DNA of 26,514 bases, from the UHGV virus genome UHGV-0108392; one strand, given 5' to 3'. The stretch's first letter is position 1, and the number at the start of each line of letters is the position of its first letter. The notes below the pieces were generated by a model, which was given only the letters and a program-made list of their open reading frames with translations, was not told where the DNA came from and made no database searches. This stretch comes from a virus. Shown one piece after another: positions 3,209-16,703 of this stretch. Made by a program: the position numbers and the translations under genes.

Positions 3209-4026
3209 ACGTACATATCCTGTTTACGTGCCCAGTCAGGGCGTTTAATAATTTCCACTCCGCCCCATTCATCGTTGATGCGGCATTCGTGATAGGTATT
3301 CAGATCCCGGCGGAACAGAGCGTGCCCGGCATCGACATCTGGCGCATCCAGCTCGAACACGCGTACCGGATACCGACCACAATCAATGCTTTCGCTCACG
3401 GCAAGAAAGAAAAAACCATGCGGCTGACCAGTAACCCTCATTGCGCCTTCGCGGTACATTGCGTCCTGCACGTGGTAGCGGAATTCCTCGATGTGGCGTG
3501 CAAAACGGTCCATATCTGCAACCTTTTTCACGTCGACGATCACGTTGTGCTCGTTCAGCCATTTGTCTGGACGAATTCGGCACAACTCACCCGTCTCTTC
3601 ATCGTTCCAGTACATTGATGCTTCGCAGTAACCAGGTGCTTCCAACATCCAGCGTGCCGCCGGATGAGCCATTGCGCTATCACGCATCAGCTCCAGTTTT
3701 CGCCACTGCTCGACATCAAGTACCGTAATACCCATATCCGCCACATCACGAAGAAATGCTTCTTCGTCAGCTTTACCTTGTTTTGTCCGACGATCGAATT
3801 TCGGTGAAACGATGAAGCGTTTGTCGAATTCTCCAGGTTCCAGAAGCAGGCAGTGCAATGCGGTTCCCATATCCAGTGCAGACTTTTTCTCTTCGTCTTC
3901 TGGTGCTGCCTGAACCCATTTAAGAAGCGCCGGATTCTTGGCAACCATGTCCAGTTGCGACTTACTCACGCCGTCACCTGCGTGGTAGTCTTCGTTGCTG
4001 ATGTCGAAATAAATTCCCGGTTTCAT
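3205..4026 (-). CDS. PD-(D/E)XK exonuclease (RecE/exonuclease VIII C-terminal-domain-like), partner of the annealing protein
   Basis: 273-aa protein with a D...(D/E)xK-type motif (NVIVDVKKVADMD), translationally coupled to the downstream RecT-like gene. Confidence 0.7.
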   Translation of the reverse strand: MKPGIYFDISNEDYHAGDGVSKSQLDMVAKNPALLKWVQAAPEDEEKKSALDMGTALHCLLLEPGEFDKRFIVSPKFDRRTKQGKADEEAFLRDVADMGITVLDVEQWRKLELMRDSAMAHPAARWMLEAPGYCEASMYWNDEETGELCRIRPDKWLNEHNVIVDVKKVADMDRFARHIEEFRYHVQDAMYREGAMRVTGQPHGFFFLAVSESIDCGRYPVRVFELDAPDVDAGHALFRRDLNTYHECRINDEWGGVEIIKRPDWARKQDMYV

Positions 4027-4322
4027 GCCGCGTCCCTCTGCCCATCAAGCTGATCCGCCAGATCCCAGCGCGCTATAATTGCCATTGCCTCGCGCCGGTA
4101 GGCATCCATCAGTTCTTCGAACTCAGGGCTGTCTTTAGCAGCCTCCAGCACTTCCTGACGAACGCCTTTGCCTGTTACAACGTCGAAAGTTGAGGACAGT
4201 TGATGAAGTCGGATGCTCTCAATCAGTTCAACTTGTCGGTCATATAGCTGTTCTGACAGGCGGTAGTCCTTGTCGAATGCCAGCATGATTTTTTGAAGAT
4301 TTTTCTGCTGATTAACGTTCAT
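4023..4322 (-). CDS. Hypothetical protein (about 99 aa)
   Basis: ORF in the leftward early operon; likely start is the MNVNQQ methionine at 4322, which sits 2 nt after the stop of the upstream small ORF. Confidence 0.4.
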   Translation of the reverse strand: MNVNQQKNLQKIMLAFDKDYRLSEQLYDRQVELIESIRLHQLSSTFDVVTGKGVRQEVLEAAKDSPEFEELMDAYRREAMAIIARWDLADQLDGQRDAA

Positions 4323-4482: not shown

Positions 4483-4573
4483 GTTACCTCGGTCTGTTAC
4501 CGTTGAGGTAATAATTATGCGTATTTGGTTTGATGTCAATAGATATGAGTTAAGAAAATTACCTATTAGGTAA
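4483..4573 (-). promoter_or_regulatory. Leftward early promoter region (pL-like) with flanking operator palindromes
   Basis: Minus strand carries a perfect TTGACA -35 followed by an AT-rich -10 region (CATAATTAT). It is flanked by the perfect palindrome TTACCTATTAGGTAA (4559-4573) and by inverted arms TTACCTC...GAGGTAA (4483-4510) overlapping the RBS of the first ORF. Confidence 0.45.
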
Positions 4574-4630: not shown

Positions 4631-5215
4631 TTATTGTTTGTTTTTTTCGTTCTGGTTGATGACAAATTCAATGTAACTTTCGATCTTTGCTTTCTCGGTT
4701 TCGGGTAACAATGCGTAGCGCGAGCGGTCATAGTTGATGGTCGCAGGGTCGTGCGGGTGAATCAGTAATTCATAGCCGTGACGCCCGAATGCGGATGCAA
4801 CATTCTCCAGGGTGGAAATGGAAACGCTGACCTCATTGTTTAACAGGCGGCTGATTGTCACCTGGGCGACGCCGGATGCGCGGTGAAGTTTTCCCTGAGT
4901 TGAAAGGTCGCGGCTTTCGCTCATCCAGCGTTCCAGGTTGTGAGCCGCCAGCTGACCAATGTCGCTTGGGCCGACAGGCTGAAAACCTTCCTGAGAAAGC
5001 GAGCGATCGATATCAAGCCAGTTACGTGGTTTATTGGCGGCAGCTTCAATTTTTCGCGCAACCTGGTCGCCGATAACCTTCTTGCCAAGAGCCCAGCGGT
5101 TTACCAGATTTGCCTGAGTTCCAAGTTTTTCTGCCATCCGCGTCTGAACACCATTGAATTCACGGTCGATCAAGTCGTTGAGATTTTGCCTGCGGACGTC
5201 CTGGATACTTTTCAT
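4631..5215 (-). CDS. Prophage repressor, two HTH-like segments (XRE/CI type), no S24 peptidase domain
   Basis: N-terminal segment (QTRMAEKLGTQANLVNRWALGKKVIGDQVARKIEAAANKPRNWLD) matches the CI-repressor HTH pattern; a second HTH-like segment lies in the C-terminal half. Divergent from a cro-like gene across an operator-rich intergenic region. Confidence 0.6.
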   Translation of the reverse strand: MKSIQDVRRQNLNDLIDREFNGVQTRMAEKLGTQANLVNRWALGKKVIGDQVARKIEAAANKPRNWLDIDRSLSQEGFQPVGPSDIGQLAAHNLERWMSESRDLSTQGKLHRASGVAQVTISRLLNNEVSVSISTLENVASAFGRHGYELLIHPHDPATINYDRSRYALLPETEKAKIESYIEFVINQNEKNKQ

Positions 5216-6782: not shown

Positions 6783-7564
6783 ACAACGTTTTTACCGCGA
6801 TACAAAACCGTGACGGAGAAGCCCTTTCTCGCATGTCAGGTTATGAGCATCAGTACACCAACAATGACAACGTGGTGAACATGTCAGCAGAGAGGCTTGT
6901 TGATGCCCTTTTCAAACAGCTGAAACAACTGTTTCCGGCGGCAGTGGTAACCAACCTGAAGACGCCAGAGCAGGAAGTTGCTGCAAAACAGCAGTGGATT
7001 GCTGCGTTTGCCGAAGGGGGGATCCGAACCCGTGAACAGGTTTCTGCTGGTATGCGCCACGCCCGCGCCAGTGAGTCTCCGTTCTGGCCGTCGCCAGGGC
7101 AATTCATCAAGTGGTGTAAAGACAGCAAGATGGTTCTTGGCGTCACCATTGACGATGTGATGGCGGAGTTTCACCGGTACAGCAAGGAAAAAAGTTTATA
7201 TCCTGGTGGTCCCGAAAGATTCCCGTGGCGACATCCGGTTATGTACTGGGTCGTATGTGATACCCGCCGTGCAATGTATCAGCGCCAGCTTAGCGAGATT
7301 GAGGTTGAGAAACACGCGCGCAGGCTGCTCGATGATTGGGCGAAAAAGGTAGCTTCCGGACAGCAGATACCCGATCCGGTGATCAGCATACAGGCAAAGC
7401 GAGAGCCCATGAGTACACCTCCGGACACAGGGAGAGACGTTTACCATCCACCAGGGCGAAGTTTCGGGTGCATGCCTAACGCCGCCACCCTTGGGGGAAT
7501 AACACCGGCGCAGTGGCTGATGGAGGAATACAGGCGGGGAAAGGCGGCAGGATTTATCAAGTAA
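6779..7564 (+). CDS. Replication protein P-like (DnaB helicase loader)
   Basis: Clear similarity to lambda P as recalled (REQVSAGMRHARASESPFWPSPGQFIKWCKDS versus lambda MEQVNAGMRVARRQNRPFLPSPGQFVAWCREE). A GTG at 6779 has a GGGAGG RBS and overlaps the O-like stop; an alternative ATG lies at 6764. Confidence 0.8.
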   Translation: MNNVFTAIQNRDGEALSRMSGYEHQYTNNDNVVNMSAERLVDALFKQLKQLFPAAVVTNLKTPEQEVAAKQQWIAAFAEGGIRTREQVSAGMRHARASESPFWPSPGQFIKWCKDSKMVLGVTIDDVMAEFHRYSKEKSLYPGGPERFPWRHPVMYWVVCDTRRAMYQRQLSEIEVEKHARRLLDDWAKKVASGQQIPDPVISIQAKREPMSTPPDTGRDVYHPPGRSFGCMPNAATLGGITPAQWLMEEYRRGKAAGFIK

Positions 7565-7681: not shown

Positions 7682-8026
7682 ATGAGAAAACAGATACAGG
7701 CTCTTGGTCGACTCAAAACAGGCCAGATGAACAAAACAGAATCTGCGTATTGCCAGCACCTTGAGCTGCGTAAACGTGCAGGAGAAATCGTCTGGTATCG
7801 ATTTGAGGGTATCAAGCTGCGGTTAGCTGACAACACGTTCTATACGCCCGATTTTGCTGTGATGCTCGCCACCGGCGAGATGGAACTGCACGAAGTGAAA
7901 GGTTTCTGGACCGACGACGCCAGGGTGAAAACCAAAGTCGCCGCAGATCAGTATCCGTTCCGAATCATCGGGGTAACGGTTAAACCAAAGAAAGCAGGTG
8001 GTGGCTGGAACATCGAAGAGTTCTGA
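7682..8026 (+). CDS. DUF1064-family protein (putative PD-(D/E)XK-like nuclease)
   Basis: 114-aa protein with the YTPDF...HEVKG motif pattern recalled for DUF1064 phage proteins. Confidence 0.55.
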   Translation: MRKQIQALGRLKTGQMNKTESAYCQHLELRKRAGEIVWYRFEGIKLRLADNTFYTPDFAVMLATGEMELHEVKGFWTDDARVKTKVAADQYPFRIIGVTVKPKKAGGGWNIEEF

Positions 8027-11520: not shown

Positions 11521-12117
11521 ATGATGCCTGCTGAACCTAAAACCTATAAACGCAAATCAACGCAATTTAAGCCACTAACAGCAATGCAGGAGGCTTATTG
11601 CCAGTCATACATCAAAACGCCTGAAAACCAGACTCAGGCAGCGATTAACGCAGGATTCTCCCCAAATACAGCGGCAGTTAAAGCCAGTGTCATGATGCGC
11701 GATGAACGCATTCAAAAACGGATTGCCGAGTTGATGGAGGAGCGCAACAAACGAATGCGCGTCAGTGCTGATTACGTTCTCATGCGCCTGGTGGAGATCG
11801 ACCAGATGGACGTGATCGACATCCTCAACGACGATGGGAGCCTTAAACCAATCCGTGAGTGGCCGAAAATCTGGCGCACTACGCTTAGTGGCTTTGATCT
11901 GTCATCGACCATCATGAACATGAACGAGGATTCGATAGAGACAATCCTCAAAAAAATTAAATGGCCTGACAAGGTGAAGAACCTTGAGCTGATTGGTAAG
12001 CATGTTGATGTCAACGCGTTCAAAGAACGTCTGGATGTTAATGTGAATGTGACAATTGCTGATCGCATAGCAGCAGCCAGGAAGCGACTCAAAGAACGTC
12101 AGGATGGTAATCAGTGA
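11521..12117 (+). CDS. Terminase small subunit
   Basis: Immediately upstream of, and overlapping (GTGA), the large terminase gene; N-terminal region (QEAYCQSYIKTPENQTQAAINAGFSPNTAAVKASVMMRDERIQKRI) resembles terminase small-subunit HTH domains. The true start is probably ATG 11521 (AAGGTGG RBS) rather than the track's 11443. Confidence 0.6.
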   Translation: MMPAEPKTYKRKSTQFKPLTAMQEAYCQSYIKTPENQTQAAINAGFSPNTAAVKASVMMRDERIQKRIAELMEERNKRMRVSADYVLMRLVEIDQMDVIDILNDDGSLKPIREWPKIWRTTLSGFDLSSTIMNMNEDSIETILKKIKWPDKVKNLELIGKHVDVNAFKERLDVNVNVTIADRIAAARKRLKERQDGNQ

Positions 12118-13589
12118 CAGATACAGCGTTATCTCCTGAAGAGCAGTTGATCGAGGATATTGCAGGGTTCACTCACGATCCGCTTGGTTATGCCCTCTAT
12201 GCGTTCCCGTGGGGGGAAGAGGGGACTGAACTGGCACATGCCACCGGTCCACGTCAGTGGCAGGCCGATGCGTTCCGAGAGATACGTGATCACCTGCAGA
12301 ATCCAGAGACGCGCTATCAGCCGCTTATGCTGGCACGCGCTTCTGGTCACGGTATTGGTAAATCCGCATTCATCTCAATGCTGATCAACTGGGGCATGTC
12401 CACTTGCGAGGATTGTAAGGTCGTGGTGACCGCCAACACCGACAACCAGCTACGAACGAAGACTTGGCCGGAAATTATCAAGTGGTCGAACCTTGCTATC
12501 ACGAAAGACTGGTTTACCTGTACCGCTACCGCGATGTACAGCAATGATCCTGGGCACGACAAGCGGTGGCGAGCTGACGCAATCCCCTGGTCTGAGCACA
12601 ACACTGAGGCATTCGCCGGACTACACAACGAGCGCAAACGCATCATCGTGGTATTCGATGAAGCGTCGAACATTGCGGATCTGGTGTGGGAAGTTGCCGA
12701 GGGTGCGCTAACGGACGAAGACACTGAGATTATCTGGGTGGCGTTCGGAAACCCGACGCGTAATACCGGACGTTTCCGCGAATGTTTCCGCAAATATAAA
12801 CACCGCTGGAAAACTGCGCAGATTGACAGCCGGACGGTGGAAGGCACTAACAAACAGCAGTTGCAGAAATGGGTTGATGACTACGGGGAAGACAGCGACT
12901 TCGTTAAAATCCGTGTGCGCGGCATATTCCCGGATGCATCTGAATTGCAGTTTATCCCTACCGGACTTACTGACGAGGCAATGAAACGGGTGGTCACCGC
13001 TGCGCAGGTTGCACATGCTCCGGTGATAATCGGCGTTGACCCGGCATACTCAGGCGTTGATGATGCGGTGATATACCTGCGGCAGGGGCTGCACAGTAAG
13101 GTGCTGTGGACCGGCAACAAGACCACTGACGATCTGATTATGGCAAAGCGTATCGCTGACTTTGAAGACCAGTATCAGGCTGACGCGGTGTTCATCGACT
13201 TCGGTTACGGAACTGGTCTGAAGTCAATCGGTGACGGCTGGGGTCGTACATGGCAACTTGTTCCGTTCGGTGGCGCGTCTACTGACCCGCAGATGCTCAA
13301 TAAGCGCGGGGAGATGTTCAACTCATGCAAGACGTGGCTGAGGCTGGGCGGCATGCTTGATGACCAGGAAACAGCGGACGACCTGTCGGCGGCAGAGTAC
13401 AAAGTTCGAGTGGACGGTAAAATCGTTATCGAACCGAAGGAAGATATCAAGGAGCGGCTTGGGCGTTCTCCTGGTAAAGGCGATGCGCTACTGCTGACGT
13501 TTGCGTTCCCTGTGTCGAAGCGTCTGCGAATTCCCGGGCAGCAGAACCAGCAAGGCAAGGCCATCACAGATTACGATCCATATGCTTAA
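12114..13589 (+). CDS. Terminase large subunit
   Basis: Walker A-like ARASGHGIGKS, Walker B-like VVFDEASN, C-terminal nuclease-type region; 491 aa. Confidence 0.85.
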   Translation: MTDTALSPEEQLIEDIAGFTHDPLGYALYAFPWGEEGTELAHATGPRQWQADAFREIRDHLQNPETRYQPLMLARASGHGIGKSAFISMLINWGMSTCEDCKVVVTANTDNQLRTKTWPEIIKWSNLAITKDWFTCTATAMYSNDPGHDKRWRADAIPWSEHNTEAFAGLHNERKRIIVVFDEASNIADLVWEVAEGALTDEDTEIIWVAFGNPTRNTGRFRECFRKYKHRWKTAQIDSRTVEGTNKQQLQKWVDDYGEDSDFVKIRVRGIFPDASELQFIPTGLTDEAMKRVVTAAQVAHAPVIIGVDPAYSGVDDAVIYLRQGLHSKVLWTGNKTTDDLIMAKRIADFEDQYQADAVFIDFGYGTGLKSIGDGWGRTWQLVPFGGASTDPQMLNKRGEMFNSCKTWLRLGGMLDDQETADDLSAAEYKVRVDGKIVIEPKEDIKERLGRSPGKGDALLLTFAFPVSKRLRIPGQQNQQGKAITDYDPYA

Positions 13590-13639: not shown

Positions 13640-13659
13640 AGCCAGCTCATCGGCTGGCT
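13640..13659. terminator. Putative bidirectional terminator hairpin between large terminase and the convergent moron gene
   Basis: AGCCAGC-TCATCG-GCTGGCT hairpin with A/T-rich flanks on both sides. Confidence 0.4.
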
Positions 13660-13679: not shown

Positions 13680-14099
13680 TTACTTAATGGCATTAAATCC
13701 AGCGTTGATGGCTTCCGCAATATTGATGGCACTTGTTTTATCGAAGTGCCCATTCTGAATAAGCGCCGCATGCAGGCATTGTAACTTCATGTTGTATAAG
13801 TGTTCGCTCATGTAATCATGATCACTTTTTGCTTTAGCGTAAACAGCGCGAGAAATATCAAACATATCGCCTTTTTCCATTTCAGAACGTTGTGCTGTTA
13901 TCCAGTCATGGAACGTAACGCTAGTACCATGGTCTTCGCTAAGAGTTAACCCGGCCAGTCCCTCACTCTGAATTACTTCGTAATGCATTTCATTACCAGC
14001 AAAAACGCCATAAAAAACGCAGTCTTCAGCCTGAACGATACGAGAATATTTTAATGGCCATTCATTTAGATACTTAGCCAACATATCAATTGTCTTCAT
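13680..14099 (-). CDS. Hypothetical protein (139 aa), opposite-strand moron gene downstream of the tRNA
   Basis: Good RBS (AAGGTGAG), opposite orientation to the flanking packaging and structural genes, no recognisable domain. Confidence 0.5.
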   Translation of the reverse strand: MKTIDMLAKYLNEWPLKYSRIVQAEDCVFYGVFAGNEMHYEVIQSEGLAGLTLSEDHGTSVTFHDWITAQRSEMEKGDMFDISRAVYAKAKSDHDYMSEHLYNMKLQCLHAALIQNGHFDKTSAINIAEAINAGFNAIK

Positions 14100-14298
14100 A
14101 ATCTCACCTTAAAAAAATGCCCGGACGAACCGGGCGAACTGGAAGCAATGAGTTCTGCCTTCCGTGGCTGTACTGGTTTACAGCATGAAGTCATCGCAAT
14201 GGCGTCCTGCTGTAAAAAGGGCGGTGATAGTCCTTCAAGGGAAACCATCACCGCCAAGCACCTGGAACTTCTGGCATCACGGTCCTTAGGCGTGATTC

Positions 14299-14375
14299 TG
14301 GCGTGGCATGCAGGATTCGAACCTGCGACCAACCGCTTAGAAGGCGGTTGCTCTGTCCAACTGAGCTAATGCCAC
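14299..14375 (-). tRNA. tRNA-Arg (anticodon UCU), phage-encoded, CCA encoded
   Basis: Reverse complement folds by hand as a 77-nt cloverleaf: acceptor GTGGCAT/ATGCCAC, D-stem GCTC/GAGC, anticodon stem ACCGC/GCGGT with loop CTTCTAA, T-stem GCAGG/CCTGC with loop TTCGAAT, then G-CCA. Stem sequences differ from E. coli argU as recalled. Confidence 0.9.
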
Positions 14376-14697
14376 AACGCTGAGAGCACTTAGCCTGTTA
14401 AGGCGCCACACTTTGTCGCGGCTCCATAAATGCTCTCATCGTTGTACCCTCGTCTCTTCCGAGGCGTCACACCGAATCGCCGGGATGGTGAATCCCCGTG
14501 CGCGGAATAAAACCGCTCGACTTGCACATTCCGGCTACCTGGTTCGTTTGCCCGAGCAAGGGAGGGTGCCCCTTAAACGTATCCAGACCGCTATCGGCGC
14601 ATGTGCCATACGCCGTACTGCTCAAAATAAAAGCTCACTCCACCTGTTCAATTTAACGACAAGCCAGTCATGTTAGTAACCGGAATGAACTCTTTGG

Positions 14698-14712
14698 TTA
14701 CCTCAAAGGTAA
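14698..14712. promoter_or_regulatory. Perfect operator palindrome TTACCTCAAAGGTAA upstream of the structural-gene module
   Basis: Same 15-bp palindrome as at the early promoters; a perfect TTGACA lies on the minus strand at 14734-14729 next to it. Confidence 0.4.
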
Positions 14713-14802
14713 TAATTCGCGCATTAAATGTCAACTGCCTACGATAAATAAATCATATGTGGTTAAATTGGTAATAATTTAATTGCGTACGGAGTCATTG
14801 AT

Positions 14803-15009
14803 ATGTGCATGGGTAGCTCACCATCAGTGCCTGCAACACCAGAAGTTCAGGCAGCACCACAGGAGCAGGATGCCGCCGTTGTTGATGCCCGCGACGAAGA
14901 AACTCGTCGCCGTCGCGCTGCTGCTAGTCGTAGTTCTACGCTGCTTACCGGTTCTCAGGGCGACACATCAACCGCTAAGACCAGCGGTAAAACGCTGCTT
15001 GGTCAGTAA
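14803..15009 (+). CDS. Hypothetical small Ala/Arg-rich protein preceding the portal gene
   Basis: ATG with a GGAG RBS; its initiation region CGGAGTCATTGA-ATG is near-identical to that of the portal gene. Confidence 0.4.
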   Translation: MCMGSSPSVPATPEVQAAPQEQDAAVVDARDEETRRRRAAASRSSTLLTGSQGDTSTAKTSGKTLLGQ

Positions 15010-15023
15010 CCGGAGTCATTGAA

Positions 15024-16703
15024 ATGGCGGAAACAACTAAAGAGCGATTGAACAAACAGTTCGCACAACTTGAAAGCGAGCGTCAGTCGTTCGAGCCGCA
15101 CTGGCGCGAGTTGAGTGATTACATCAACCCACGTGGTTCCCGCTTTCTGACTTCTGAGGTCAACCGTAACGATCGACGCAATACACGCATTATTGATTCG
15201 ACCGGGACTATGGCGGCGCGCACTCTCGCCAGCGGCATGATGTCAGGCATCACAAGCCCCGCGCGTCCGTGGTTTCGCCTGGCTACGCCAGATCCTGAAA
15301 TGATGGATTATGGCCCTGTTAAGTTGTGGCTTGAGGCGGTGCAGAACCGCATGAACGATATGTTCAATAAGTCGAATCTCTACCAGTCTCTTCCGCAGTT
15401 ATACGGAAGCCTCGGCACATACAGCACCGGTGCAATGGCGGTACTGGAGGATGACGAGGACATCATTCGCACAATGCCATTCCCGATAGGCAGTTACTAC
15501 CTGGCTAACTCACCTCGTGGCAGTGTGGACACCTGTTTTCGCAAGTTCTCTATGACCGTTCGTCAGCTTGTTCAGGAGTTCGGGCTAAATAACGTCAGCG
15601 AATCCGTAAAAAGCATGTGGGAAAGCGGCACCTACGAGAAGTGGATTGAAGTGATGCATTCGGTTTACCCGAACATTGACCGCGATACATCGAAGCTGGA
15701 TAGCAAGAACAAGCCATTCAAATCGGTTTATTACGAGGTTGGCGGTGATAACGACAAGTTGTTGCGTGAGTCCGGATTCGATGAGTTTCCAATTATGGCT
15801 CCGCGCTGGGAAGTTAATGGCGAAGATGTTTATGGATCATCATGCCCGGGTATGCTGGCGCTTGGACCTGTTAAGGCATTGCAGCTTCTCCAGAAGCGCA
15901 AGTCGCAGTTGATTGATAAAGCCACCAATCCGCCGATGGTTGCTCCGACTTCCCTCAAGAATCAGCGCGCCTCCCTTCTTCCTGGCGACATCACGTATAT
16001 CGATCAGATTACTGGTCAGGATGGATTCAGGCCTGCTTATCTGGTTAACCCCAGTACAGCAGATTTGGTGGCAGACATTCAGGACACTCGTCAAATCATT
16101 AACAGCGCCTACTTTGTCGATCTGTTCATGATGTTGCAGAACATCAATACCCGCTCGATGCCTGTTGAAGCGGTGATCGAAATGAAAGAAGAAAAACTTC
16201 TGATGTTGGGGCCGGTTCTGGAGCGTCTGAACGACGAATGTCTTAATCCTCTCATTGACCGCGCTTTCTCGATGATGGTGCGTAAAAACATGCTGCCGCC
16301 ACCGCCTGACGCGATGGAAGGCATGCCCCTGAAGGTCGAATACATTTCCGTCATGGCTCAGGCGCAGAAGTCTATCGGCCTGTCCAGTCTGGCGTCCACG
16401 GTTAACTTCATTGGTCAACTTGCGCAAGCGAAACCAGAAGCTCTCGACAAACTCAACGTTGATCAGGCGATCGATGCATTCGCTGATATGTCCGGAGTGT
16501 CTCCAACCGTCATTGTTCCGCAGGAACAGGTTGAGCAGGCTCGCCAGCAACGGGCACAGCAGCAACAGCAGCAACAAATGATGGCGATGGGGATGGCGGC
16601 GGCACAGGGTGTCAAGACGCTAAGTGAAGCTAAAACTTCGGATCCGAGTGTGTTGTCAGCTATGGCGAATGCAGTTAGTGGTCAGGGTGGGCAATCACAA
16701 TGA
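15024..16703 (+). CDS. Portal / head-to-tail connector protein (T7 gp8-like)
   Basis: 559 aa; Gln-rich C-terminus (QQQQQQMMAMGMAAAQG) resembles the T7 gp8 C-terminus as recalled; positioned after terminase and before scaffold and capsid. Confidence 0.75.
   Translation: MAETTKERLNKQFAQLESERQSFEPHWRELSDYINPRGSRFLTSEVNRNDRRNTRIIDSTGTMAARTLASGMMSGITSPARPWFRLATPDPEMMDYGPVKLWLEAVQNRMNDMFNKSNLYQSLPQLYGSLGTYSTGAMAVLEDDEDIIRTMPFPIGSYYLANSPRGSVDTCFRKFSMTVRQLVQEFGLNNVSESVKSMWESGTYEKWIEVMHSVYPNIDRDTSKLDSKNKPFKSVYYEVGGDNDKLLRESGFDEFPIMAPRWEVNGEDVYGSSCPGMLALGPVKALQLLQKRKSQLIDKATNPPMVAPTSLKNQRASLLPGDITYIDQITGQDGFRPAYLVNPSTADLVADIQDTRQIINSAYFVDLFMMLQNINTRSMPVEAVIEMKEEKLLMLGPVLERLNDECLNPLIDRAFSMMVRKNMLPPPPDAMEGMPLKVEYISVMAQAQKSIGLSSLASTVNFIGQLAQAKPEALDKLNVDQAIDAFADMSGVSPTVIVPQEQVEQARQQRAQQQQQQQMMAMGMAAAQGVKTLSEAKTSDPSVLSAMANAVSGQGGQSQ

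Follow-up and report, generated by a model that had tools for sequence, protein, structure and literature searches.

A widely distributed family of structured RNAs at the early promoters of phages, adjoining tRNA-Arg in a phiV10/epsilon15-like genome and proposed as a put-like antiterminator leader

The minus strand of positions 14616–14376 of the window (the whole 26,514-nucleotide stretch of UHGV virus genome UHGV-0108392 analyzed here) specifies a structured RNA which abuts a tRNA-Arg gene and belongs to a new, widespread RNA family located at phage early promoters. We observe this family, with a common fold, strand and genomic slot, in phages of very different kinds, and the element is shared by hundreds of temperate phages with no relationship to one another. 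Its function is a matter of proposal only. The proposal which we favor, with a probability of roughly 0.4, is that it acts as a put-like cis-acting leader, antiterminator or anti-Rho, which would allow RNA polymerase to pass the two terminators that follow the tRNA.

The window phage is of the phiV10/epsilon15 type, with 98% identity to Escherichia phage phiV10 and related Uetakevirus over 14100–14810. The local gene order includes, on the plus strand, the large terminase subunit (12114–13589), a gp3-like ORF of 68 aa (14803–15009) and the portal gene (15024–16703). On the minus strand are tRNA-Arg(UCU) (14299–14375; ARAGORN, Rfam 73.3 bits), co-oriented and contiguous with the element, and a 139-aa ORF (13680–14099; phrog_4846, function unknown), which is the sole protein gene 3' of the tRNA on this strand. 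A reading made from the sequence alone had described 14376–14802 as GC-rich, non-coding DNA upstream of a tRNA. The interval is indeed intergenic, and both ARAGORN and Rfam place the tRNA on the minus strand; GC-rich is correct for 14376–14640 (55.8%) but not for the interval as a whole (48% versus 49% in the window). The remainder, 14641–14802, is AT-rich (35% GC) and is the control region, with an operator and a predicted minus-strand promoter. It is the minus strand of 14376–14616, rather than all of 14376–14802, which is conserved and structured.

Structure and strand of the element

The RNA is ~170–240 nt in size, with a core of ~170 nt (14616–14445) composed of five helices and at least one pseudoknot, and with an additional hairpin, P6, at its 3' end. 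The structure was read from an alignment (A3) of 42 members having a mutual identity of at most ~88%, and was then scored. Pairing is possible in 96.0% of the pairing cells across the 42 members, compared with 29–43% when the 3' partners are slid by 1–3 columns. Changes on both sides were found at 12 pairs (94 cells), and none of 500 shuffles reached the observed values. The possibility that a conserved structure would be revealed by covariation, raised by the sequence-only reading, is therefore realized, with compensatory changes at 12 pairs in the 42 members. Its suggestion of an unrecognised structured RNA also held: at E≤10 a search of Rfam 15 with window positions 13900–15100 returned nothing credible besides the tRNA, and the mEp460 version (2150–2950) likewise had no credible match.

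Helix P1 (14595–14615; CGGCGU-AUGGCACAU-GCGCCG, family form CGGCRU/RYGYCG) includes a pair, 9–21, at which 23 members have GC, 17 have AU and two have GU. Two pairs are almost always of the U-G type, namely U10–G20 in P1 (40 of 42 members) and U33–G100 (41 of 42). Helix P2 (14532–14590) is formed by CGGU and CUGG with CCAG, a GUA bulge and GCCG (family form CGGU+CYRN...NYRG, GUA bulge, GCCG), and carries a variable apical domain with a YCCUUG loop motif; its closing pairs covary in the alignment (CG/UA 28/13 at pair 35–95, and GC/AU 38/4). The most conserved stretch of the element is a nearly invariant 19-mer, GGUAGCCGGAAUGUGCAAG (14521–14539, minus strand; GGTAGCCGGAATGTGCAAG as DNA). Next is a variable hairpin, P3 (14502–14516; GCGG-UUUUAUU-CCGC), in which neither sequence nor length is conserved and whose recurrence was judged by eye.

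Helix P4 (14470–14496; GGGA/UCCC with the loop UUCACCA, YUCACCA in the family) shows both-side changes in three of its four pairs, pair 150–158 being AU in 28 members, UG in nine and CG in five. The loop CACC of P4 forms an H-type pseudoknot with GGUG at 14473–14470; all of the pseudoknot cells (100%) pair, and at pair 153–173 CG (38 members) alternates with AU (four members). Hairpin P5 (14448–14464; CCUCG-GAAGAGA-CGAGG) has both-side changes in three of five pairs, with a 29/9 division at each of pairs 181–194 and 182–193. The long hairpin P6 (14376–14443; AACGAUGAGAGCA...UGCUCUCAGCGUU), with a minimum free energy of -31.6 kcal/mol, ends on the base that abuts the first base of the tRNA, and its stem is preserved in the Klebsiella and mEp460 homologues despite their different interiors.

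About 11% of the paired cells are G-U, which the opposite strand would read as A-C mismatches. It follows that the functional strand is the minus strand of the window, and the element is more likely to act as RNA than as a DNA structure. Folding of the single sequence did not discriminate between the strands (z = -2.2 for minus and -2.5 for plus). A covariance model of the 5' half recognizes the window copy with 80 bits (E = 2e-23) and found no second copy within the window.

RNAalifold independently finds P2, P4 and P5. It also pairs the invariant GCACAU of the P1 loop with AUGUGC of the 19-mer, a pairing that we propose as an additional pseudoknot, since it may coexist with the lower stem of P1; every column concerned is invariant, so that covariation is uninformative here. 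Visual inspection also suggested likenesses to the ERIC repeat, the 3' end of 16S rRNA with its anti-Shine-Dalgarno sequence (GCGGU...CACCUCCUU) and the hammerhead motif CUGAUGA. We regard these as coincidence; for the CCUUG loop of P2, pairing with the CAAG stretch of the 19-mer is more plausible.

Some members depart from this plan downstream of the core. Extra copies of a P5-like hairpin, followed by ACAACAUGA(G/A)AGCGCA, occur in mEp390 (L010, ~1780–1810) and in locus L039 (~6850–6950), and in one subclass, the "alt" members L017, L042 and L050, an extra segment separates the pseudoknot from P5. The impression is of a modular 3' half whose parts have been reshuffled.

Distribution, promoter and genomic slot

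The 19-mer occurs exactly at least 120 times in IMG/VR, and over all fetched loci it is unchanged in 153 of 155 instances, a count which includes 23 loci found through a pattern that did not contain the 19-mer. Those 23 loci (Enterobacteriaceae, Erwinia and one Acidovorax assembly) came from a search of GTDB genomes in which the pattern combined P1 with the first part of P2. When 14376–14616 was used as query, that is, without the tRNA, it matched unrelated phages at ~80–83% identity. These include the lambdoid phages mEp460, cdtI and 2H10 and Stx2c and Stx2a phages; P1, P7, D6, SJ46 and RCS47; and phages of Klebsiella, Enterobacter, Salmonella and Stenotrophomonas. A 181-nt core query has matches in 1840 of 5426 complete Escherichia coli genomes, about a third, and none of 60 sampled E. 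coli RefSeq rows carries an annotated feature under the match. We found no description of the element in the literature on put-like RNAs, on the P1 ban leader or on the phiV10/epsilon15 promoters. Neither this wide occurrence of the family nor its independence from the tRNA had been anticipated in the sequence-only reading.

Locus L030 has two tandem copies on the minus strand (4803–4961 and 3996–4156), ~800 nt apart and both 3' of a single repressor gene. In the second copy a variant 19-mer, GGAAGCUGGAAUGUGCAAG, is accompanied by a matching change of CGGU to CGGC in P2, so that the proposed CGGN/GCYG helix is still paired. Phage epsilon15 retains only P1 and the start of P2, as a deletion extends from the P2 loop to the terminator loop. 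Compared with 14214–14570 of the window, epsilon15 (L001, ~1600–1700) has lost the greater part of the element together with the tRNA and one half of the first terminator, and the deletion fuses the P2 loop (GGGTTCCCTTGATGCT) to a similar sequence in the loop of that terminator. The "RNaseIII" site annotated in epsilon15 covers this stump of the element. The element is absent from CPS-53 of E. coli K-12, because the immunity region is deleted there, which makes K-12 transcriptomes uninformative about it.

Two control signals cited in the sequence-only reading are present upstream of the element. The operator palindrome TTACCTCAAAGGTAA (14698–14712) is real and non-random: TTACCN5GGTAA, with one mismatch or fewer, is found ten times in the window against 0.35 expected, copies flank a repressor-like ORF (4631–5215) on both sides, and the homologous site in epsilon15 (AY150271) carries the annotation "repressor." A TTGACA hexamer lies on the minus strand at 14734–14729, as had been read, and this -35 sequence is kept in epsilon15 and in locus L078. 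The candidate -10, TACCTT (14706–14711), falls within the operator, 17 nt past the -35; it fits the consensus weakly, and a consensus promoter scan did not report it. Based upon these sequences we predict a repressor-controlled minus-strand promoter, with the operator over its -10, whose leader would run into tRNA-Arg. From the predicted start to P1 (14617–14700) this leader has a length which varies from ~5 to 85 nt among relatives.

The canonical early-left operators of the window are at 4497–4573, and the element follows another operator-controlled promoter. The ten operator copies are at 4497, 4559, 5271, 5319, 5656, 7602, 7664, 11489, 11507 and 14698. One pair is located upstream of the ORF at 7682 and another (11489, 11507) within the small-terminase ORF; the prophage repressor may therefore control several operons, one of them adjoining structural genes.

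Between 141 and 146 distinct contexts were examined. An upstream ORF is present in 108 of them, and in most of these 108 it encodes a CI-like HTH or HTH+S24 repressor, is on the same strand and ends ~85–185 nt upstream. The order in mEp460 is cI stop, terminator, two OR-type TTGCN7GCAA operators, promoter, ~45 nt and element. In mEp390 the 14-bp operator GTAGGATATCTTAC occurs at OR and again, over a TTGACA promoter, just 5' of the element, and in several lineages the promoter -10 is merely ~10–15 nt from P1. As operators and promoter stand directly 5' of the element, we take it, on sequence grounds, to be the first RNA made from PL in the lambdoid relatives. It lies there between OL/PL and a conserved terminator, in phages for which no N gene is annotated, and is present in one copy per genome with no putR equivalent. 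In phage mEp460, for example, a Q-like gene is present, no N gene is annotated and the early-left operon measures ~7 kb; a leader of ~620 nt, with two terminator-like hairpins, precedes this operon.

The element is found in other positions as well. Some members have it after the lysis genes. In phage P1 it is part of the C1-controlled ban operon, 15 nt past tRNA-Ile(CAU) and ~100 nt before ban, with no terminator between element and ban. The P1 locus has, in the interval from the element to ban (L004, 2397–2450, minus strand), a 14-codon ORF with a good ribosome-binding site; its stop codon overlaps the ban start (UAAUG), which suggests that ban may be translationally coupled to a leader peptide.

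The interval had originally been read as either the promoter and leader of the tRNA transcript or an unrecognised structured RNA. Both readings find support, as descriptions of one and the same object, the promoter being a prediction. In the window the element has the attributes of a tRNA-precursor leader: it is contiguous and co-oriented with the tRNA, and has a predicted promoter upstream and a terminator downstream. One might suppose, therefore, that the element exists to serve the adjacent tRNA or tRNA-like RNA, shielding the precursor from Rho and RNases or presenting it to RNase P. The exact abutment to tRNA-Arg speaks for this, as does the lambdoid phage RNA sRNA-17 (see below), a cloverleaf with an acceptor-like stem whose 5' end is within 3 nt of the homologous junction, and so does the position of the P1 element 15 nt past tRNA-Ile. 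We nevertheless consider this explanation unlikely. Among 141 contexts, 27 have tRNA-Arg downstream, 14 have the P1 tRNA upstream instead of downstream and 97 have no detectable tRNA, which rules out an obligatory tRNA link; because of these 97, status as a tRNA leader does not explain the conservation of the element. Furthermore, RNase P has no need of an elaborate leader, and the core is conserved far better than any cargo.

Terminators, sRNA-17 and the proposed mechanism

Two terminators follow the tRNA on the minus strand of the window. T1 (14214–14255; GGCGGUGAUGG...CUAUCACCGCC CUUUUU) is of a type conserved with the family, and T2 (14112–14135; GCCCGGUUCGUCCGGGC AUUUUUUU) is ~10 nt ahead of the ribosome-binding site of ORF 14099–13680. 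Since T1 and T2 precede this ORF, its expression from the upstream promoter would, as read from the sequence, be possible solely by read-through of both. A weak Rfam match to RyhB (E = 0.64, 14111–14162) is due to chance and corresponds to T2. A further terminator is situated just past the ORF, at 13640–13659 of the same strand.

Terminators were counted in the relatives as GC-rich hairpins with a 7-bp stem and a T-run within 700 nt of the element. Among 52 distinct downstream contexts, 41 have such a hairpin; of 1000 random windows drawn from these loci, 103 have one. The distance from element to terminator is ~130 to 580 nt. The commonest type, GGCGGUN...NACCGCC C(C)UUUU, is found after the element in most lineages, often with a second terminator next, GUUCGCCC...GGGC AUUUUUU, of which T2 is the window version. 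The 5' strand of T1 begins with GCGGU, resembling helix P2 (14220–14255 of the window and homologues), and the T1-type loop contains CCUU, as does the P2 loop, in 29 of 46 distinct versions. Judged by sequence, the conserved terminator looks like a mimic or duplicate of P2.

On the strength of these resemblances one could see in the element a ribozyme that cleaves itself, or a riboregulator responding to a ligand or factor, which controls the conserved terminator by adopting two folds. The CCUU motif common to the terminator and P2 loops would suit such a switch; so would the pseudoknotted core with its many invariant unpaired bases, and the preference of RNAalifold for the GCACAU/AUGUGC pairing, which competes with part of P1. 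It is nonetheless a rather improbable explanation, given that there is no match to a ribozyme or riboswitch family, that the alternative pairing, with all its columns invariant, is without covariation, and that the variable terminator distance is unlike that of an expression platform.

Evidence on transcripts comes from the lambdoid relatives. Song et al. (PMC7719688) described, by 5'/3' RACE and Northern blotting, a 193-nt RNA, sRNA-17, from an mEp460-like prophage of E. coli K1 RS218. According to their supplementary alignment it corresponds to 2507–2315 of mEp460 (L002), on the strand and in the transcription unit of the element. Its 5' end is 3 nt before GUGGUGA, the position homologous to the 5' end of tRNA-Arg in the window, and its 3' end, as mapped by 3' RACE in a lysogen, is in the U-run of the conserved terminator. 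sRNA-17 folds into a cloverleaf-like four-way junction followed by the terminator; it has an acceptor-like stem (GUGGUGA/UCACCAC, 7–9 bp), D-like and T-like hairpins and a variable long arm, features which are also seen in locus L039 (~7000–7110). It is the downstream neighbor of the element, whereas in the window that place is taken by a true tRNA-Arg. There is no homology between the element and sRNA-17, and the match of the window to mEp460 stops at the tRNA border.

In the lambdoid version, then, the strand of the element is transcribed, termination at T1 happens, at least in lysogens, and a processing site exists at the junction of element and cargo. RNase P is plausibly the enzyme responsible, and sRNA-17 is probably the 3' product of a PL transcript, freed by this enzyme.

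The 392 bp upstream of sRNA-17 were called its promoter region by Song et al. (PMC7719688). By sequence comparison, this region can be read as cI terminator, OL/PL and element. The designation raises the question of whether the stretch is mere promoter DNA, for instance an ArcA-regulated promoter for sRNA-17, or else protein-coding, through ORF 14413–14676 or through the ORFs of other records. In favor one can cite, besides the published promoter region, a GTTA-N13-GTTA repeat in P2 of mEp460 and the ORFs annotated over the element in mEp460 (mEp460_037) and mEp390. We regard either possibility as very improbable. The annotated ORFs vary in frame and extent among records. That ORF 14413–14676 (87 aa) is no gene, as already surmised from the sequence, is confirmed by its homologues, in which the frame is not kept: core lengths modulo 3 are spread 17/13/12, so that indels break the frame, and substitutions in the helices are compensatory, which rules out the coding reading. 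The abundant G-U pairs argue in the same direction, and with the OL/PL operators upstream of it the element would be transcribed rather than lie within a promoter.

The main rival to the antiterminator proposal sees the whole unit (promoter, element, a cargo that is a tRNA or resembles one, and conserved terminator) as a discrete early gene for non-coding RNA, in which the element is the 5' part and from which processed, stable products act in trans. They might, for example, bind or titrate a conserved host protein or RNA, for takeover of the cell or counter-defence, and read-through would be incidental. The whole unit, including the sequence-conserved terminator GGCGGU..ACCGCC CUUUU, moves together; its 3' part accumulates as the stable 193-nt sRNA-17 with defined ends; the unit in the window holds almost only RNA genes; and a compact fold with multiple pseudoknots and invariant nucleotides is nearer to RNP and ribozyme RNAs than to the 70-nt put. 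We find this explanation doubtful all the same. There is no conserved gene for a protein partner nearby, the reported stable RNAs do not cover the element itself, the P1 element lies within the ban operon without a terminator of its own, and the passage of transcription into the 7-kb operon of lambdoid phages lacking N would be left unexplained.

Under the antiterminator proposal, we infer transcription, polymerase binding and antitermination in the window phage in the following manner. Transcription would begin at the repressor-controlled promoter (operator 14698–14712) and proceed onward into tRNA-Arg. The folded core with its invariant 19-mer would bind host RNA polymerase, or another elongation factor, and the bound complex would resist both intrinsic and Rho-dependent termination; transcription could then cross the untranslated tRNA segment, T1 and T2 to reach the downstream gene. 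An RNase P cut at the 5' end of the tRNA would free the element. In the lambdoid relatives the same mechanism would take transcription through the whole early-left operon.

Antitermination is favored by the genomic slot, by the genomes without N, by the terminators downstream and by the invariant unpaired nucleotides in hosts which share RNA polymerase; invariance of single-stranded and junction nucleotides across phage types would fit binding to a conserved host machine. Against it stand the absence of homology to put and the termination at T1 observed for sRNA-17 (3' RACE, lysogen). The sequence-conserved terminator, with its P2-like loop, is a hint that one is dealing with a specific RNA unit and not with a generic obstacle. 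Moreover, the unit in the window includes just one small ORF, P1 has no terminator before ban, and a putR equivalent is missing.

Significance and comparison with known systems

In phages, the processive antitermination known to depend on RNA alone is essentially confined to one small family, put. The element is a concrete, abundant and easily tested candidate for antitermination in phages without N, and in P1 it is placed upstream of ban. A bolder form of the proposal, which we put forward tentatively, is that it might be a third RNA-only early antitermination device, unrelated to put in sequence and more than twice its size, which would reprogram RNA polymerase (or Rho/Nus factors) through the 19-nt core and the pseudoknots in P1, epsilon15-like phages and N-less lambdoids, with a tRNA or tRNA-like module to detach the RNA. 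Two published annotations are re-interpreted in any case, the "promoter region" of the virulence-linked sRNA-17 as a structured RNA and the "RNase III site" of epsilon15 as a stump of the element. Even if antitermination should prove wrong, a 170-nt pseudoknotted RNA which is absent from Rfam and has an invariant core of 19 nt is worth structural and functional study. What the sequence-only reading had noticed is real, and more interesting than it was first rated.

Like the nutL/N leader of lambda, the element heads an early, operator-controlled transcript; in epsilon15 (AY150271) the homologous intergenic region bears annotations of three sites, for an operator, for IHF and for RNA processing ("RNaseIII"). 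No N-like gene is annotated alongside the element, and an unsystematic look for boxB found none. A resemblance to boxA is seen in UGCUCUC, within the 3' strand of P6; this sequence is base-paired and is not universal.

Species 1 and 2 RNAs of phage T4 are structured non-coding RNAs which adjoin tRNA genes and are presumably freed by tRNA-processing enzymes. They belong to the tRNA cluster of a lytic phage, whereas the element is at a repressor-controlled early promoter.

The put RNAs bind the zinc-binding domain of the RNA polymerase beta' subunit and suppress pausing and termination in cis. They are ~70 nt in length with two stems, the order being GUCGAACGGCGCGAC..UAAACCAUGCGUCGG, helix, GGCGGG, hairpin, CGGCAAU, helix. 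Structural work by cryo-EM in 2022 reportedly used ten put sequences. The put core motif AAACCATGCGTCGG has at least 120 matches in IMG/VR (L160–L279), 71 of them with the full put stem I, and judging from these matches put-type RNAs would therefore be far commoner than those ten sequences.

The element differs from put in several respects. Its core is ~170 nt, with five helices and at least one pseudoknot, and the P6 hairpin is added to this; it is present in a single copy per genome, and its function is proposed only. Its carriers include P1 and podoviruses of the epsilon15 type, and some members follow lysis genes. The covariance model of its 5' half, run with filters off, gave no match to HK022 putL or putR or to HK639 putL (annotated in its record as "putL-like antiterminator RNA") at E≤10, and we therefore do not assign the element to the put family. 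The likeness in sequence is therefore limited to short collinear motifs shared with HK022 putL and HK639 putL (ACGGCG...CAUGCGUCG, GCGG and CGG(C)AAUG), and these could be due to chance.

Nevertheless, both are cis-encoded structured RNAs just 3' of repressor-controlled early promoters, with terminators further on, and both are found in phages without an N protein (none is annotated in mEp460 in the case of the element). The two never occur together in 71 put loci (0.89 Mb) and 156 element loci (1.39 Mb). In one set of relatives one stands in the place of the other: locus L252 has an HK022-type put, L039 and L068 have the element, and their repressors are 88.6% identical. DNA homology between L252 and L039/L068 (72% over 915 bp) covers cI, the terminator and OL/PL and stops at the transcription start region. 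Early-operon antitermination in the many lambdoid phages without N was raised as a question again in 2025 by Casjens and colleagues (PMC12315714), who suggested put-type antitermination for an N-less phage with a CI closest to that of mEp460_4F5 and did not identify the RNA responsible. A functional analogy between put and the element, by which the latter might be such an RNA, is supported by its position.
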